This document shows positions 24,134 through 32,000 of a DNA stretch of 32,000 nt, piece by piece. The stretch's first letter is position 1. Every line of letters starts with the position of its first letter. Source of the stretch: Xylella taiwanensis (GTDB lineage: Bacteria; Pseudomonadota; Gammaproteobacteria; Xanthomonadales; Xanthomonadaceae); the NCBI RefSeq assembly GCF_013177435.1, contig NZ_CP053627.1:990001-1022000 (forward strand), given 5' to 3'. Made by a program: the position numbers and the translations under genes. The notes beneath the pieces are model-generated. The model did no database searches and was not told where the DNA came from. It was given only the letters and a program-made list of their open reading frames with translations.

Positions 24134-24331
24134 GCTCCGTGATGCCACAGAAAGCGTCTGCCTCGCTTTGCCGGCTTTGTTGGTCGTTATCAATCTCTGT
24201 GGTGTTTCGTGGCGGATGTATGCCACGGTCATCTTTCTCGAGTCATTTCTCGCCTGATTTCCTATGTGTCGCGTTGCTGCGCTTTTTTCCTGAGCATAGC
24301 CCGCCGCGTTGCTGTCACCGGACCACCTGCT

Positions 24332-25900
24332 ATGACGCCGAATATCCATCACGACAAAATTCTTATCCTCGATTTCGGTGCGCAGTACACGCAATTGATT
24401 GCCCGCCGTATCCGTGACATCGGTGTCTACTGCGAAGTCTGGGCCTGGGATCATTCCCCCGAAGAGATCCTGAACTTCGGAGCCAAAGGGATTATCCTGT
24501 CCGGCGGCCCCGAATCGACCACATCCCCAGGCGCGCCCACAGCCCCGCAACACGTATTCGACAGCGGCCTGCCCATCCTCGGCATTTGCTATGGCATGCA
24601 AACGATGGCCGTACACTTTGGTGGCACGACCGAGGCCGCTAACAAACGCGAGTTCGGCCACGCCTCGGTTCAGGTCATTTGCCCGGATACCTTACTTTCC
24701 GGCTTGTCCGATCATCACCCTGAGTCCCGTCTGGATGTGTGGATGAGTCATGGCGACCATGTTGCGCAAGTGCCGCCTGGCTTCACCATCACCGCGGTCA
24801 CTGACCGCATCCCCGTTGCGGCGATGAGCCGCGAAGATAAGCGCTGGTATGGCGTGCAATTTCACCCGGAAGTGACCCATACCTTACAGGGGCAGGCTTT
24901 GCTGCGCCGTTTCGCGGTCGATGTGTGTGGCTGCCAGACCTTGTGGACCGCGGCTCACATTATTGAAGACCAGATTGCGCGCGTGCGTGAACGTGTCGGT
25001 AGCGATGAAGTCATTCTCGGCCTGTCCGGTGGCGTTGATTCTTCCGTCGTGGCCGCTCTGTTACATAAAGCCATTGGACGGCAACTGACGTGCGTGTTTG
25101 TGGATACCGGCCTGCTTCGCTGGCAGGAAGGCGACCAAGTGATGGCCATGTTTGCTGAACACATGGGCGTCAACGTGATCCGTATCAATGCCGCAGTGCG
25201 TTACTTCAATGCACTGCAAGGTGTTTGTGATCCAGAGGCCAAGCGCAAGATCATCGGTCACCTCTTCATCCAGATATTCGAGGAAGAAGCCAGCAAGCGA
25301 AAGCACGCCAAATGGCTGGCCCAAGGCACGATTTATCCTGACGTGATCGAGTCGGCCAGCAGCAAGACCGGCAAGGCCCACGTGATCAAGACCCATCACA
25401 ACGTCGGCGGCTTGCCGGAGCACATGACGCTCGGCATCATCGAACCATTACGCGAATTGTTCAAAGATGAAGTGCGCCGCCTTGGCATCGCACTCGATTT
25501 GCCCCGCACGATGGTGTATCGCCATCCATTCCCAGGCCCGGGCTTGGGCGTGCGTATCCTGGGTGAGGTCAAGCCAGAGTATGCCGAGCTGCTGGCCAAG
25601 GCTGACGCGATTTTTATCGATGAATTGCATCGCGCCGGCCTGTACGACAACGTCAGCCAAGCCTTTGCCGTCTTTCTTCCAGTGAAATCGGTCGGTGTCG
25701 TCGGTGATGCCCGCGCTTACGAATGGGTGATTGCATTGCGTGCGGTCGAGACCGTCGATTTTATGACCGCACATTGGGCGCCGCTGCCGTATGACTTCCT
25801 CAGCATCGTGTCCAACCGCATCATCAATGAACTACGGGGCGTCTCCCGCGTGGTCTACGATATTTCCGGCAAACCGCCAGCGACGATTGAGTGGGAGTGA
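24332..25900 (+). CDS. guaA: GMP synthase (glutamine-hydrolysing)
   Basis: ORF 24209-25900. The conserved start region [28 protein letters not shown] is at ATG 24332. It has the GATase ICYGMQ motif, the PP-loop [11 protein letters not shown], and an intact canonical C-terminus [10 protein letters not shown]. Confidence 0.95.
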
Positions 25901-26180: not shown

Positions 26181-27353
26181 ATGCTTACCGACACTGCACG
26201 ATGCAATCTTAAGCGTCATTCCAAGCCCTATCAGGCTTCGGATCGTGACGGCATGTACGTCACACGGTACGGTATCGACCACCGGTACCGCCACCTTCCG
26301 TGGCGATGACTGCCTCAATGGCCGGCGCGAGACACTGACCATTCGACGGTATGGGCGGTCTGGTATTGCGCTGGCGATGGCTAGTGAAACGCGAAGCGAC
26401 GCCGAAAAGGACGTCGTCGCTCAGAGCCAGTCCCCAGCGCAAGAGAAGCAACGCAGGCTGACCGCAGCCAAGATCTTTTGCGACCTAGTAGGCAAGGGGG
26501 GCGCATGCTTGAATGGCTGACCTTACTCAGGTGATGCGCAAGAGCAGTGTTGCACGCAATATTCTGCCGGCCTTCCAGCATCGGCAGCGCAACGCAATCA
26601 TCGCCGCCCCCTGGCCGTGCCATGTGCAATAAGGTCAAGGCCCGTGGACGTACCCATCCGTGAGATCGTCAAACAGGATGATGCCTTCGGAAATCCTGCA
26701 CGGCGAGCAAGTGGACAACCCAGCCGCAAGCGTGCGTGCCGCTTCGATGACCACCTTTGTTCCCAAGGAGCGTGCCTTGTCGCTGCTGGAAATCTCGCTG
26801 CTGGCACCACGGGGCACGACAGCCACCTATCCGAGGATCCCGCTGGCACTGCGCATGATCCTGCTGCTGGTGCACATGAGAGAGTTTGATGCAGCTCCCC
26901 CGTGATGAGGTTGATGTCAAGAACGCCACCTGGACGATTCCCAAGCAACGTATCAAGCGGCGCCGCAGGTGGTTGATCTGTTGCGCCCGGCGCACGACAG
27001 CTTTGTGGCGCTACACACCGGCGTGGCCGGTTCCAAGTGGGTGCTGCCGTTACGCTATGACGCTGACCGCTGCATGTCGAACGCGACCTTGTAACCGATC
27101 AAGCAGATCGTGGCGGAGCGGGCAAATGGAGCCATTCACCGTCCATCACGTGCGCCGTACAGGCGCGACGCTGTTGCACGACATCGGCTGCAACTGCGAC
27201 TGAATCGAGAAGTGCCTGGTCCACGAAGCCGGTCGTTCCTCATGCTCGATCTACAACCAGAGCCAGTACACCGAACACCGGTGCCACATACTGCAGGCGT
27301 GGGCCAACATGGTCGATGCCTGGATCGACGGGCAGATCTACGTGCCGAATTGA
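26181..27353 (+). pseudogene. int: P4-type tyrosine integrase, decayed (several frameshifts and in-frame stops)
   Basis: Integrase-like peptides are spread over three frames:
- MLTDTARCNLKRHSKPYQASDRDGMYV (from ATG 26181, stop after 42 codons).
- NGRRETLTIRRYGRSGIALAMASETRSDAEKDVVAQSQSPAQEKQ.
- IPLALRMILLLVHMRE / PRDEVDVKNATWTIPKQRIKRRR.
- QVVDLLRPAHDSFVALH...WVLPLRYDADRCMSNATL.
- FTVHHVRRTGATLLHDIGCNCD-TGA-IEKCLVHE...SIYNQSQY...LQAWANMVDAWIDG, ending at TGA 27351-27353.
The TGA at 27201-27203 sits where these integrases normally have Trp (DWIE). Confidence 0.85.
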
Positions 27354-27773
27354 TGCCGAAGAACACGGTCATGCTTCTATTGCGTGTGATGGCTTGCAAT
27401 GGCTACGTGGTCACTGGACACCCTTGCATGTCATTCCGTTATGGACCTGCGTGCGTGGCGTTGCAGGTCAATGTAGCCCAGCACGGTTGACGTCTGCCGC
27501 GTGCTGCGTCTGAAGCAGCTGCAAGTCCTGCTTGGATGCAGGTTGGTGCTGGCTGCATGCTTGGCGTGAACCCGCTCGGGTAGGGCAGGTTTTGCGTAGG
27601 TAGACATCGGGCTTCGCAGCGCTACTACGAGGGGTTTGCTGGTGCGCCTCAATCCACGTGTCCACTGCGGCCAAGCCCTACATGAAGTTCAGTACCTATC
27701 GGAACAACGTGCTGGAGCGAAGCACGGCCAAGTCAAGCGCTCTTGCGGTGTCTTTTTCGACTTCACTCAATGG

Positions 27774-28766
27774 TTACTTCAAGTCTTGTTCGAGCCAATA
27801 GCGTTCTTCTTCGGCGACGAGCTCCTGCATTGCGTTCAGTTCAACGGACCGCGCTGACCTGCGGCGGCCCGCGATCTTTTCAGATGTCATCTCCGACTGA
27901 AATTCGGTCTGGATGCACGCTCCCAGCACTCGCTGGAACTCCAGTGCATCGGTGCGTGCGCAGCGCACGGACCCATCCGCATCATTGATCACCATCAGCA
28001 TCACAGAATTCAAGCGAAGCAGGTGGCGCCAGCGGCGATCCATTGACACGAAATACGGGATGAAGAAGTCGGCCTGGTTAGATTTGGCTGTGGCGTTTTG
28101 CTCCATGACACGGAGCAATGTCATGTCCCAGGCCATGCCGCGAATCTTCTGCAACATCTCAGTGGACCTGCCCATGATGGGGCCGAAGAAGGGCGACCCC
28201 TGGCTAGAGGTCATGCCGCTCCAGATCAGCTGCAATTCGGTAAGCGGGATCACCCCTAGCTGATGAATGCTGAAACGGCACAATTCACGCAGGATGTGAT
28301 GCTTGTCCCGTTTGCGTTCCTCATGCCAAAGTCGAGCGAACCGCACTAGCAGCGCCTGCACTACAGCGCTCTTTGCCTCGTGTTCATCAATACACTTACT
28401 AGTGTGTGACTCGGTCAGAAAGGCTTCGGCATCGGGCCGTAGCAGGGCCTTCAGGTCCTCGTATGCAGCATCAAAAACGAAGCGGCTGGGATCATGCTGA
28501 AAGGCATGCCAATCCAGGTGGTCGAGCATGCGGAAAGCGATCAGCGTATTCAAGGGGCGCTCGTTTGAGGGCTCGTCGCGGGCTAGACGCCTGTTCTCAA
28601 TGAGAAACGACATCACGTCGAATTGCACATGGCGGTTTCGAGCCTTCAGCATGAGAATTTGGATGACCCTATCGCGATCAGCGCGTTGAATGTTCTCGCC
28701 AGCAATGGCCGCACGCCGCTTCTCTGCAACATTCGAGTCGAAGCTGAGAGAGAAATCGATCAACAC
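27774..28766 (-). CDS. Hypothetical protein, no family recognised; possibly the C-terminal 330 codons of a disrupted ~420-codon gene
   Basis: 330-codon ORF whose first codon is GTG 28766 (next in-frame ATG at 28652). It has no signal peptide or TM segment and looks helix-rich and charged. It lies 71 nt plus one small ORF downstream of qatD on the same strand. Confidence 0.5.
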   Translation of the reverse strand: MLIDFSLSFDSNVAEKRRAAIAGENIQRADRDRVIQILMLKARNRHVQFDVMSFLIENRRLARDEPSNERPLNTLIAFRMLDHLDWHAFQHDPSRFVFDAAYEDLKALLRPDAEAFLTESHTSKCIDEHEAKSAVVQALLVRFARLWHEERKRDKHHILRELCRFSIHQLGVIPLTELQLIWSGMTSSQGSPFFGPIMGRSTEMLQKIRGMAWDMTLLRVMEQNATAKSNQADFFIPYFVSMDRRWRHLLRLNSVMLMVINDADGSVRCARTDALEFQRVLGACIQTEFQSEMTSEKIAGRRRSARSVELNAMQELVAEEERYWLEQDLK

Positions 28767-28835
28767 GTTCGACCTGCCACCCGTGAGACAGGCATGGACG
28801 CTGGTTTCGGGCGATATGAAGAACGCACGCGGCCC

Positions 28836-29036
28836 TCAAAAAAACGAGGTTACAGCCTCGCTGGAGGACACATTGAGCCCGAGCTCCAAGTCAACGGCAC
28901 CCGGAGCATCGGTGCAGAAGACGGTGCGGATGAATGCGCATTCGGCGGCGCGGTTTGCTTCAATGGCATCGAGTGCAGCCATGTCACGGTTGAGGAGGGC
29001 GGAGAACAGCGCGTCGCCAATGGGGATGTCAGGCAT
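28836..29036 (-). CDS. 66-codon ORF, in the same frame as 27774-28766 and separated from it by a single TGA; probable N-terminal fragment
   Basis: ATG 29036 is preceded by AAAGAG 7 nt upstream. 29036 and 28766 are 270 nt apart (a multiple of 3). The only stop between them is TGA 28836-28838. Confidence 0.35.
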   Translation of the reverse strand: MPDIPIGDALFSALLNRDMAALDAIEANRAAECAFIRTVFCTDAPGAVDLELGLNVSSSEAVTSFF

Positions 29037-29107
29037 AGATCACTCTTTAAGTTGTCAACATAGGCCGGCAGTTTTGGGTATTGCGACTCAGCGTGTTCCG
29101 CCTCCAG

Positions 29108-29857
29108 CTATACGAGCAACGCGCGCAGGTTGTCGCGGATGATGCGAGCCAGGTCGCTCGCAGGCCGTCCATGCAAACGGCCCAGTGCCTCCACTACGCT
29201 TGCTACATCAGCCGGTTGCGAAGGTCTGTCGCCAGTGCGGGTGAAGGGGCCATCGGTTTCCGTCAGCAGCCGATCCAAGGGGATTGCTTGCACCAGCGGC
29301 GCGTGCCTCTCATGGCCCAGCATTCTGGCATTGATTGAGAAGTAGCAGCCCAGCTCCAGCGCACGCTTTGCCTCGGTTTTGGTTCCGGTGAACCAATGGA
29401 GAACAATTTTCCCGCGCTCGGGCGGCAGATGTGTCTCGACAAGATCGAGCACCGCCTTAGCCGACCTGATGCTGTGGACCGTGATGATCTTGTCGCCGGC
29501 CTGCGCACAACGCTGCAACACGTGCTGGAAGACACGCTGCTGCGCATCAAGCGACTTGAAGTACCGAGGGCCGGCGTCCAACCCGACTTCGCCAACATAA
29601 CGCGTCTCCGCGAGATACCGATCCCACAACTCGATCTCGCTTTCACGCTCCGCGACCAATTGCGGGTGCAGCCCCAGCGCTGCTCGAACATGCTTTGTGC
29701 GCTGCGCGAGTGCGTGATTGCGGGGCCACGCGCGCGGAGTCGTCGTTACGGCCAGGGTGAACACGCCGGACGCCTCCGCATCCTGGACCGCCGCCGCATG
29801 ATCCGGGTAGAGATCAAGGTGGCAGTGGAAGTCCACCAGGTTTGCAGAGGCGATCAT
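29108..29857 (-). CDS. qatD: TatD-family metal-dependent hydrolase/DNase, QatD-like
   Basis: The ORF track starts at 29974, overlapping qatC by 104 nt. In-frame ATG 29857 lies 13 nt after the qatC stop, with AGGA upstream, and gives MIASANLVDFHCHLDLY. TatD motifs: HCH (29819-29827), GEVGLD, ITVHSIRS, VLHWFTG, LLTETDGPF. Confidence 0.8.
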   Translation of the reverse strand: MIASANLVDFHCHLDLYPDHAAAVQDAEASGVFTLAVTTTPRAWPRNHALAQRTKHVRAALGLHPQLVAERESEIELWDRYLAETRYVGEVGLDAGPRYFKSLDAQQRVFQHVLQRCAQAGDKIITVHSIRSAKAVLDLVETHLPPERGKIVLHWFTGTKTEAKRALELGCYFSINARMLGHERHAPLVQAIPLDRLLTETDGPFTRTGDRPSQPADVASVVEALGRLHGRPASDLARIIRDNLRALLV

Positions 29858-29870
29858 GCACGCATCCTGG

Positions 29871-31235
29871 TCAACCTGGTCTGGCTTCAACACCGTCGAT
29901 GAGCCGTGCGACTTCGTCAAGGCCGCGCCGGTAGACATCGGCAAGCTGATCCAAGTGTGCGGCTTCATCGGCAAGCGAGCCGGGCTTGTGGATCAAGAGG
30001 TTCGCGAGCTGAGGCTTGCCCTTCAAGCGCTCGATCGCGTACTGGAACGATCTGACCTGCACTCCTGTCGCCTGGCGTGTGTCCAATGGCTCCGCGTGAA
30101 GATCGGGTACGGTGTACGTCGTCGGGTCGTTCCCCGTACCCCATGCGGCTGTCAACGCTGCGCGACGGATCAGACAGGGCAGGCAATAGCCACATTGCTC
30201 AATACTACGTCCTAGCCATCTGACCTTGGCGGGAGATGAGCACGACAACGCATCTGTTGCCAGCGTCTTCAAGAGATCTGGGTTGCGGCAGGCGGCGGCC
30301 ATCTCGCCCTTCGTCTTGTCCCAGTAAGGGTTCCGAATCGTGCCGTTAATGCCGAGTGCGACGAGCAGGTCGTTCCACCTCGCTATGTAATACGGATGCG
30401 TGGTGCGGGTGCTGTTTGATCCCAAGCGCAGCGGATCCAAAGGCACATTCAGCGCGATCAGCCCATTTTCGGGGACACGCAGGACGAAACGCTGCCCAAG
30501 CCCGGTGCCCGCGAACACCCCGAGAGCGAAGCACAGGAACGACCTGCCGCGGGTGCTGTTCTCCTTGTCACCGTCTTCCACAAGGCCATCGGCAAAGGTC
30601 ATGTTGACCCGCAGTCGTTCGAATGAGGTGTTGTAATGTTCTTGCAGGCTTTTGGACAATCTTTCCTGTGCCTGGCTTGTCGCGCCCTCGCCGCAGTGGC
30701 TGACCAGTAGAGGCGTGGCGCCGTCCTCCAACAGATCAATGGCCCCAATCAAGCTGTCTAATCCCCCTGAGAACAGGCTGATGGAATCAAAGAGCGGAGC
30801 GATCAAGTCCAGAGACGTTGCTTGGGCAAGCGTCGCGAACTGATCTGGACGTGCTCTGAACACGATCGTCCAGAGATCACCCGTCAGGAAGTCCAGCGAC
30901 TGCTTCAGTAGCGCTGCTGCTGCATTCCAACGCACGGGATCACTGACTGGCACGACCAGCCGTATTTCGCGCGTCCACGCGTCCTGCGAGTGCTTGGTAC
31001 GAGAGATGCCTGTGTCTGCTGCGTGGATATGGGCCGCCAGGATCAGCAGGTCAATGCCGATCTCCGAGGGAAACACACCGAGGTTCTTCAAGCGAGTCAG
31101 CGCATGACCGATGCCATGCGCTAAGGATTTATCCTTGGAAACGAGTAGCACGTAGGTGCTGTGTTCGTCGACACCCGCCGTGACCTTGAAGTTGTCATCA
31201 GGACCGAAGTGGCCCGCCAAGAGGTGTCGCTTCAT
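29871..31235 (-). CDS. qatC: QueC-like PP-loop ATPase with N-terminal extension, QatC-like
   Basis: 454-aa ORF. The PP-loop SGGLDS is at aa 156-161 (nt 30753-30770, checked by hand). The Cys cluster CGYCLPC is at aa 348-354 (nt 30174-30194), as in the QueC zinc site. The start overlaps the upstream stop (ATGA, 31232-31235). Confidence 0.8.
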   Translation of the reverse strand: MKRHLLAGHFGPDDNFKVTAGVDEHSTYVLLVSKDKSLAHGIGHALTRLKNLGVFPSEIGIDLLILAAHIHAADTGISRTKHSQDAWTREIRLVVPVSDPVRWNAAAALLKQSLDFLTGDLWTIVFRARPDQFATLAQATSLDLIAPLFDSISLFSGGLDSLIGAIDLLEDGATPLLVSHCGEGATSQAQERLSKSLQEHYNTSFERLRVNMTFADGLVEDGDKENSTRGRSFLCFALGVFAGTGLGQRFVLRVPENGLIALNVPLDPLRLGSNSTRTTHPYYIARWNDLLVALGINGTIRNPYWDKTKGEMAAACRNPDLLKTLATDALSCSSPAKVRWLGRSIEQCGYCLPCLIRRAALTAAWGTGNDPTTYTVPDLHAEPLDTRQATGVQVRSFQYAIERLKGKPQLANLLIHKPGSLADEAAHLDQLADVYRRGLDEVARLIDGVEARPG

Positions 31236-31960
31236 TGATCCGCCTCCAGATCGGCCAGGGTGTGCAAGATTGCAAATGCAGACGCGTACAGCGCATCGAC
31301 GAACCCTTGAATGCGCTCGGGCGTGAGATTCGGCGTTTCCGCACGGGCCCGCGTCAGCGCGTCGCTCACCCCACCCCGGATGAAGTCGCGCAACTGCTGT
31401 TCGACGCGGTGTGCAGCTTGCGTGTCCGCTGGCATGGTCACAGCCTTTGTCCCAATGTCGTTGTAGATGCGGGCTTCTATCGCGTGGGTGGCATACAGCT
31501 CGAAGACTGTCTGCATTTGATCCGGCGTGCAGGTGTCCAGATCGGTAAGCCCTTCACTTATCAGTTCGTCGATGGTTTCAAAGTACGCCTCGCGGGGGAT
31601 GCCTGCATCGACGGTGCCCGCGCCTGGGCAGACGTAGTCGGCCAGACCAATGAGGATGCCCGTGAGTGGGCGTCCGGCTAACGACTCCAGGTCCAGCGCT
31701 CGTAGCGCCTCGCGCACCCCCCTTGCTTGTGCATCGGCCAGAAAACCAAGCAACCGTGCCCCCGCTCCACGCGAGGCGCCCATACGTTGCGCCGCCTGGC
31801 GCGCGCCGCCGGCCGATGTTGCAACGTATGTTGAGACGGCGCGGCCCAGGTTGACACGGTCGCTGCCACCCGAAGCGGCAAATCGCGTGAAGCTGTTGCG
31901 CGCATCGGAGAAGCGTCGCGGGTCTGCCGTTGCGGGCATGGGTGGCCGGTTCGGCGGCAT
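31232..31960 (-). CDS. qatB: Protein in the QatB position of a Qat-type operon (start uncertain; frame stays open to the window edge)
   Basis: 242-aa ORF from ATG 31960. It is assigned by position only (immediately upstream of and coupled to qatC); I do not recognise a domain. The same frame has no stop up to base 32000 (...AAPPGNGAAPDNV-M), and neither ATG 31960 nor ATG 31939 has an SD. Confidence 0.45.
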   Translation of the reverse strand: MPPNRPPMPATADPRRFSDARNSFTRFAASGGSDRVNLGRAVSTYVATSAGGARQAAQRMGASRGAGARLLGFLADAQARGVREALRALDLESLAGRPLTGILIGLADYVCPGAGTVDAGIPREAYFETIDELISEGLTDLDTCTPDQMQTVFELYATHAIEARIYNDIGTKAVTMPADTQAAHRVEQQLRDFIRGGVSDALTRARAETPNLTPERIQGFVDALYASAFAILHTLADLEADQ

Positions 31961-32000
31961 GACGTTGTCTGGTGCTGCGCCATTGCCAGGAGGGGCGGCA

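Follow-up and report, generated by a model that had tools for sequence, protein, structure and literature searches.

Is the interrupted reading frame that lies directly downstream of qatD in Xylella taiwanensis one inactivated gene or two working ones, and does it belong to the Qat defence genes beside it? The window, which here means the whole stretch of DNA analysed, comprised 32,000 nucleotides (nt) of contig NZ_CP053627.1 (positions 990,001 to 1,022,000), and the frame occupies 27774-29036 on its minus strand. Our analysis makes it very likely that this locus was one gene for a protein of about 420 amino acids (aa) and has recently become a pseudogene; it lies beside Qat on the island that both occupy but is not a part of Qat.

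One gene interrupted by a stop codon

Translation of the minus strand gave a frame of 420 codons that runs from ATG 29036 to TAA 27776-27774 and contains one internal TGA at 28838-28836; besides this codon the 1,260-nt frame holds no lesion. The ATG is placed 71 nt past the qatD stop (29108) and is preceded by an AAAGAG ribosome-binding site. The 71-nt spacer with this site (29037..29107, minus strand) is kept in related islands, as seen in alignments with the sister-lineage contig L036 and the Telluria locus L001 and in the 70-71-nt gap of loci L001-L004. Codons 1-66 (28839..29036, minus strand) align with residues 1-66 of intact homologues of 419-426 aa and are annotated as LPH50_10045, a 66-aa hypothetical protein. 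Codons 68-420 and the TAA (27774..28835, minus strand) contain an open reading frame (ORF) of 330 codons, which starts at GTG 28766, shares the frame of the 66-codon ORF, ends at the TAA 27776-27774 and is annotated as LPH50_10040; database entry P0002 is 100% identical to it. The 23 codons between the TGA and this GTG are open (GPRAFFISPETSVHACLTGGRSN). An earlier note on this DNA, written from the sequence alone, had given the coordinates, the ribosome-binding site, the single TGA and the 23 open codons, and all of these were exact when re-derived from the sequence. It had overlooked that the TGA abuts a run of seven T (28844-28838) on its 5' side and GGG (28835-28833) on its 3' side.

The 420-aa read-through product had 141 homologues (best E = 3.9e-215), nearly all of them 413-426 aa long and aligned at 98-100% coverage, so the 420-codon frame is a real coding sequence. 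The spurious GC-driven ORF, which the earlier note had named as a case that would refute its proposal, is ruled out by the same matches. More than 100 homologue clusters consisted of uninterrupted proteins of 413-426 aa, and no homologue was split in either the similarity search or the profile search of the family. In an alignment of 20 sequences, a sense codon stood at the stop column in all 19 intact homologues, encoding Glu in 17, Val in one and Lys in one, and this column falls inside the conserved motif FFEGPRAFF. A codon view of 10 loci showed GAA or GAG at the stop site in more distant relatives. These results give the survey of homologues that had been proposed at the outset, and they agree with what the earlier note held to be the simplest reading, i.e. 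one gene of about 420 aa inactivated by a nonsense mutation. The homologues are single and uninterrupted and the sister contig has GAG at the site; the alternative offered beside it, a small protein plus a 330-aa protein, is contradicted by the lack of any split homologue.

The 66-aa and 330-aa ORFs (LPH50_10045 and LPH50_10040, with 100% identical entries) are each recorded on 31 contigs. These contigs span several independent accessions, from a 2014 draft through later assemblies. Both ORFs are carried as genes in GenBank.

Origin of the stop codon

The protein cluster of the 66-aa ORF includes a partial protein of 112 aa, encoded in a metagenome-assembled genome of X. taiwanensis, that has Glu at position 67 and no stop. 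On its contig, L036 (GCA_052692375.1), qatD lies upstream with the same spacer, and the DNA is about 96% identical to the window. The contig reads TCG TTT TTT GAG GGG CCG where the window reads TCG TTT TTT TGA GGG CCG. The lesion (28833..28844, minus strand), as delimited by DNA alignment with L036 and Telluria L001 and by the codon view of 10 loci, thus consists of T7 (28844-28838), TGA (28838-28836) and GGG (28835-28833) where the sister lineage has T6-GAG-GGGG. By this comparison the T6 run gained one T and the G4 run lost one G, turning Glu67 into a stop and keeping the downstream frame. Two slippage events three bases apart are the simplest path, because the alternative takes three substitutions in one codon. 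Ordinary pseudogenes made by homopolymer slippage likewise show a lone local lesion in a frame that is otherwise intact, an intact orthologue in a sister lineage and neighbours that have decayed too. They differ in that here a +1/-1 pair three bases apart preserved the frame and yet created a stop.

The lesion is common to the sequenced Taiwanese X. taiwanensis genomes and absent from the sister lineage. In Japan, Isodon japonicus has yielded an X. taiwanensis-like assembly with 94% average nucleotide identity to strain PLS229 (PMC12542735). If L036 belongs to that assembly, the lesion arose after its lineage and the Taiwanese pear strains had separated. The ratio of non-synonymous to synonymous substitution rates (dN/dS) between the window and L036 was 0.27 for this gene, with small counts of 6 non-synonymous and 7 synonymous changes, versus 0.075 for qatD. 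Small as the counts are, these values point to a relaxed constraint on this gene alone, with qatD apparently still constrained.

Two side observations concern the same DNA. The synonymous rate between the window and L036 was 0.20 for qatD (29108-29974 vs L036 1-724) and 0.09 for the first 112 codons of the pseudogene, about a twofold difference from small counts. On the minus strand at 28862-28838, a hairpin of 7 base pairs (bp; AGCGAGG...CCTCGTT) followed by the T run scores like an intrinsic terminator and lies exactly at the new stop codon. The hairpin is also found in the sister-lineage contig, where T6 follows it, and it is weaker in more distant homologues. Its position at the stop is probably due to chance, although it could end transcription inside the gene.

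Two other explanations of the stop were weighed against inactivation of a single gene. The locus might still be functional, either through UGA read-through that yields the full-length protein or with the 66-aa and 330-aa products as separate working proteins. The absence of any other lesion from the 1,260-nt frame fits this, as do the tolerance of Val and Lys at the stop column among the homologues and the annotation of both ORFs as GenBank genes. The 330-aa product also keeps all the near-invariant residues described below, and it gave a confident AlphaFold model (predicted local distance difference test, pLDDT, 89.7). Two of these features weigh against a complete loss of function, namely that the frame downstream of the TGA is otherwise undamaged and that a product started at the GTG would retain all four acidic residues of the putative active site. 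However, homologues are never split, and GAG in the closest relative shows that no recoding site is conserved here; homologues mostly have Glu in this column and never Cys or Sec. About 90 N-terminal residues are present in every homologue and are conserved among the closer ones (D8, R37, G68, P69 and others), though divergent in distant ones. The dN/dS is higher than for qatD, and the adjoining alpA and int are clearly dead. We consider a locus that still works improbable, and in the window the full-length protein would be absent except via rare UGA read-through. As for a sequencing or assembly error in the homopolymer, T7 beside G3 is a typical site of indel errors, but such an error would take two compensating length changes, and identical 66-aa and 330-aa products occur on the 31 contigs from several independent accessions; it is scarcely credible. 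A recoded gene, with selenocysteine or programmed read-through, was rejected on the Glu, Val or Lys that homologues have at the UGA site and on the GAG of the closest relative. Recoding and sequencing error are both effectively excluded. Programmed frameshifting on T7 was rejected as well, since only the zero frame continues the homologous protein, whereas the -1 and +1 frames, read by eye, do not.

Given a single inactivated gene, LPH50_10045 and LPH50_10040 should become one merged entry that is flagged as a pseudogene.

Decay of the integrase-side end of the island

The Qat genes of the window belong to an integrative island whose insertion site is the 3' end of guaA. On the minus strand, qatD (29108..29974) encodes an intact TatD-like nuclease (PADLOC QatD, 1.4e-124; Pfam TatD_DNase), and qatC (29871..31235) encodes an intact QueC-like protein that covers the full PADLOC QatC profile (3.9e-207). 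The qatB gene (31232..32000; PADLOC QatB, 1.7e-115) is open up to the window end, its frame running to 31999.

Downstream of the pseudogene, the spacer to alpA (27686..27773, minus strand) matches L001 and L002 closely as far as a deletion junction. Only about the last 38 codons of alpA remain (27549..27685, minus strand); AlpA (PF05930) matched residues 88-125 only in tblastn, and the DNA alignment showed a clean gap of 255 columns. Relative to L001 and L002, this 255-bp deletion, with its junction at about 27685/27686, took the alpA start codon and the helix-turn-helix region. The P4-type tyrosine integrase gene that follows (26181..27350, plus strand) is also a pseudogene, as tblastn with the integrases of L001, L010 and L013 (PF13356 + PF22022 + PF00589) recovered four collinear pieces in at least three frames, and no ORF of at least 150 aa is present at 26181-27350. 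The 3' end of guaA, which encodes GMP synthase (24209..25900, plus strand; Pfam GATase and GMP_synt_C), flanks the island. Beyond the integrase pseudogene lie guaA, guaB and folD, and the remainder of the window is housekeeping, so the defence island starts only at guaA.

The integrase-side end of the island, made up of this gene, alpA and int, has decayed, with qatC and qatD still intact and qatB likewise up to the window edge. Since alpA and the integrase gene were destroyed too, a general decay of this end explains the loss of the gene. The idea in the earlier note that its inactivation would fit with toxicity is thus not required.

Two further features of the window were seen. The spacer between the gene and alpA (window 27686-27773; L001 11258-11351) shows a conservation across genera similar to that of the coding sequence, and the alpA promoter or some other regulatory element may lie in it. 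Window 1-21500 carries a glucoamylase and sugar ABC transporter cluster, agmatine deiminase, CN-hydrolase, cmk, rpsA, lapB and polysaccharide-synthesis genes.

Genomic neighbourhood of the homologues

The neighbourhood scan took one genome per species and returned 28 loci, of which about 25 were counted as species-level loci, all chosen for carrying a homologue. Qat genes lay upstream of the homologue in 7 of the approximately 25 (L001-L004 and L007-L009), and none were found near it in the other 18 or so. In L001-L004, QatBCD precedes the homologue at the 70-71-nt gap, whereas in L007-L009 a TIR-domain gene stands between qatD and the homologue.

Across the loci, the genes upstream of the homologue fall into many unrelated clusters. 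These were CBASS, BrxR, a CPBP protease and a 433-aa protein without assigned function in Achromobacter, a ResIII-methylase-UvrD-AAA_21 set in P. aeruginosa, HipBA and HigBA in Ottowia, and a ubiquitin-like E2/E1-JAB system in Acidovorax. Conjugative-element genes were found in Pectobacterium; Gabija occurred in three loci and AbiH in one. Very distant members of the family had a type I restriction-modification operon or a toxin-antitoxin islet beside them upstream. Among closer relatives, a co-directional and highly variable array of defence genes almost always ends with the homologue. AlpA comes next downstream, after about 90-120 nt, in L001-4, L010, L013, L037 and L038, and a convergent tyrosine integrase occurs within 10 kilobases (kb) in about half of the loci, some of these integrases being only 24-29% identical to the guaA type. 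The guaA-int arrangement is common to L001-3, L010, L013, L029 and L038, and many of the islands have the 3' end of guaA as their insertion site; int and alpA are both intact in L001-3, L010, L013 and L038 and are remnants in the window. Six plasmids carry the homologue, which stands alone there. A phage origin was ruled out, as the family had no match in 50,697 phage records.

Islands at guaA have been described before. The guaA-flanked island is a known and very diverse defence island (#13) in Stenotrophomonas maltophilia (PMC11680222), and guaA-inserted int-alpA mobilizable elements form a described family of immune-system reservoirs whose listed core genes are int, alpA, repA, trbJ and trbL, this gene not being among them (bioRxiv 10.64898/2026.01.12.698999). 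The island in the window shares with such elements (GIsul2, BcenGI2, PIME and S. maltophilia island #13) an integrase of the Arm-DNA-binding tyrosine type right after guaA, an AlpA and a large variable immune cargo. It differs from them in that this gene is not a described core gene, alpA points to the integrase, and int and alpA are remnants in the window, which ends short of the far end of the island. No repA or trb genes turned up among the Pfam-annotated flanking genes, for which no dedicated search was made.

Whether the gene has a fixed partner was weighed for the Qat system and for the island itself. The earlier note had suggested a fifth Qat-associated component, an accessory 'QatE', and the same-strand position 70-71 nt past qatD with a conserved spacer in the window, L036 and L001-L004 favours it. 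However, co-occurrence of homologues with Qat, which had been put forward as a check, is limited to the 7 of about 25 loci, other modules lie upstream elsewhere, and the TIR gene splits the homologue from qatD in three of the seven. In published surveys the Qat system has four genes, qatABCD, 98% of its loci show the canonical form, and QatBC is enough for defence (PMC13434339). In the window, moreover, the gene is dead while qatC and qatD, and qatB to the window edge, are intact, with qatD apparently constrained. The gene therefore resembles QatABCD in being adjacent to and co-oriented with qatD in the window and in six or seven related islands, but the co-occurrence is not conserved, the two are separable and the gene lies outside the published definition of the system. 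Membership in Qat is not supported, and the fifth-component reading, already largely refuted, is very improbable; the gene lies next to Qat on an island common to both. The other suggestion of the earlier note, an independent and undescribed defence or effector gene, may still hold. A more serious rival is that the gene belongs to the backbone of the island and acts with AlpA and the integrase in control of excision, maintenance or transfer, not as an immunity effector. Its place and orientation just upstream of alpA, with the spacer of about 90-120 nt conserved, stay constant while the upstream cargo changes completely. It is linked to integrases that are mutually only 24-29% identical, and it is exactly this gene, alpA and int that have degraded in the window, Qat being intact; int-alpA mobilizable elements inserted at guaA are, as noted, already described. 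This fixed position and co-decay count against a purely defensive role, since they could mean that the gene serves the island itself. Nevertheless, an intact copy is widely kept in Achromobacter xylosoxidans, where the integrase is reduced to a 91-aa fragment and alpA is missing, and neither int nor alpA accompanies the copies found on plasmids, in a conjugative element or behind a type I restriction-modification operon. The gene is missing from the core list of the guaA elements, and in about half of the loci no integrase lies within 10 kb. A backbone function is unlikely on this evidence, but it keeps a real chance of being right.

Several other genes of these neighbourhoods were recorded. 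Directly upstream of qatA, a protein of about 1,014 aa with caspase-like (Peptidase_C14) and DEAD/Helicase_C domains is encoded in L001 (1943-4987) and also in L003, L004, L007 and L009, with a more distant relative in L002, L010 and L011; this protein may represent a defence gene of its own that travels with Qat. The TIR-domain protein has 407 aa (L007 8615-9838; also L008 and L009) and is apparently split in L009, and qatA and qatC are apparently frameshifted in L004 and L009. An unannotated protein of about 433 aa in Achromobacter (L029 8703-10004) and Paraburkholderia (L015 8703-10001) overlaps the start of the homologue by 4 nt. The gene that precedes it is related in the two genera and resembles an Rce1-like/CPBP protease in Achromobacter. 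The overlap looks like translational coupling, and the protein may be a partner restricted to certain lineages. In L013 (11762-18355) and L037 (13367-19654), alpA and the integrase are separated by a minus-strand ORF of 2,095-2,198 aa, the L037 copy being without a Pfam hit.

The protein family and its possible function

An exhaustive profile search collected 538 clusters at 50% identity, almost all of 400-440 aa. The gene is thus a member of a widespread unannotated family of stand-alone proteins of about 400-440 aa on mobile DNA. Pfam gave no match for 68 close and 107 diverse members, and PADLOC-DB 2.0 returned only isolated chance-level matches for the window protein and the 107 members, placing them in no catalogued defence family. 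A literature search by accession found nothing on the family.

With residues numbered as in P0001, seven positions were at least 90% conserved in 107 members of 15-25% identity (D100, E147, W303, D304, P326, D332 and R391), and all seven are encoded in the 27774..28835 part. AlphaFold2 modelled the full-length protein with 68 homologues at pLDDT 90.3 and a predicted template modelling (TM) score of 0.88, and the model shows alternating strands and helices around the near-invariant residues. The motif 'islDtN' (consensus 'islDtNvasy') follows right after the first core strand and 'PYLxEN' comes after the second; 'MAWD' lies in the helix that precedes a later strand and 'FLTFD' directly after that strand. 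The acidic quartet D100, E147, D304 and D332 is located at strand ends and helix starts, judged by position relative to the predicted strands. Together the motifs and the strand-helix pattern look like an active site of the PIN type that is interrupted by about 120 residues of helical insertion.

The likeness to PIN nucleases (VapC, PF01850) lies in the order of acidic residues (D...E...D...D), in D-[ST]-N after the first strand and [ST]-x-D after the later strand, and in the predicted strand/helix alternation; hhalign placed D100 on VapC D7 and E147 on VapC E42, at a probability below 1%. In contrast to VapC, the family protein is three times larger, with an N-terminal domain of about 90 aa and the helical insertion of about 120 aa, gave no significant profile or Foldseek match and has no conserved antitoxin partner. 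On this predicted architecture we tentatively assign to the intact protein, as its most likely chemistry, a metal-dependent phosphodiesterase or nuclease activity, with the quartet as active site on a PIN-like alpha/beta core interrupted by the helical insertion, as a stand-alone effector; the chance that this is correct appears somewhat less than even. The intact protein would then act alone as an immunity, abortive-infection or addiction effector of its island.

Several search results count against this assignment. No family in Pfam, NCBIfam or PADLOC was found for the 330-aa, 66-aa or 420-aa products, and a profile search of PDB sequences with family alignments A2 and A3 gave chance matches only. 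Foldseek returned no match at E <= 1e-3 for the full model against PDB and BFVD or for the 330-aa model against PDB. The only PIN match of the full model was 2fe1 (E = 2.5, TM 0.21, target-normalised), and the large insertion may defeat local alignment. The 330-aa model, intended to expose the PIN core by dropping the N-terminal domain, did not help, as no PIN was among its 50 best Foldseek matches listed. The hhalign comparison with the VapC profile was not significant either (probability 0.8%, E = 0.066), nor was it with a single sequence; this profile comprised 26 sequences, relatives all at least 73% identical and thus of little gain, and the VapC query had been checked against 3TND. The absence of any family match agrees with the earlier note, in which no family had been recognised.

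Two other enzyme folds were considered. Foldseek matches to the OLD C-terminal region and to topoisomerase II, which would suggest Toprim, were weak (E about 2) and were taken as noise. A HEPN RNase was rejected because the RKRDKH stretch is variable in the alignment, its His is not conserved and it is not among the near-invariant columns; the earlier note was right to call this stretch too weak for HEPN.

Significance of the family

A broader view of the family, doubtful on these predictions, would make it a new single-gene immunity or abortive-infection effector, a D-E-D-D metal-dependent nuclease with a fold for which Foldseek has no counterpart among solved structures or viral ones. In Pseudomonadota and beyond, this effector would be carried along at the integrase-side edge of integrative defence islands, those at guaA and others.

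For this genome the outcome is an ordinary one, a mobile defence island at guaA that has been immobilised and whose integrase-side genes are decaying. The result for the window is mostly ordinary and moderately interesting as an experimental lead; the interest lies in the intact family. This is a sizeable family of 538 clusters without domain annotation, defence assignment or fold relative, yet it has a sharp residue signature and a consistent place in defence islands. The gene is a useful landmark for the cargo boundary of guaA-type islands, and the family is a cheap and well-defined candidate for phage-defence or island-biology screens.

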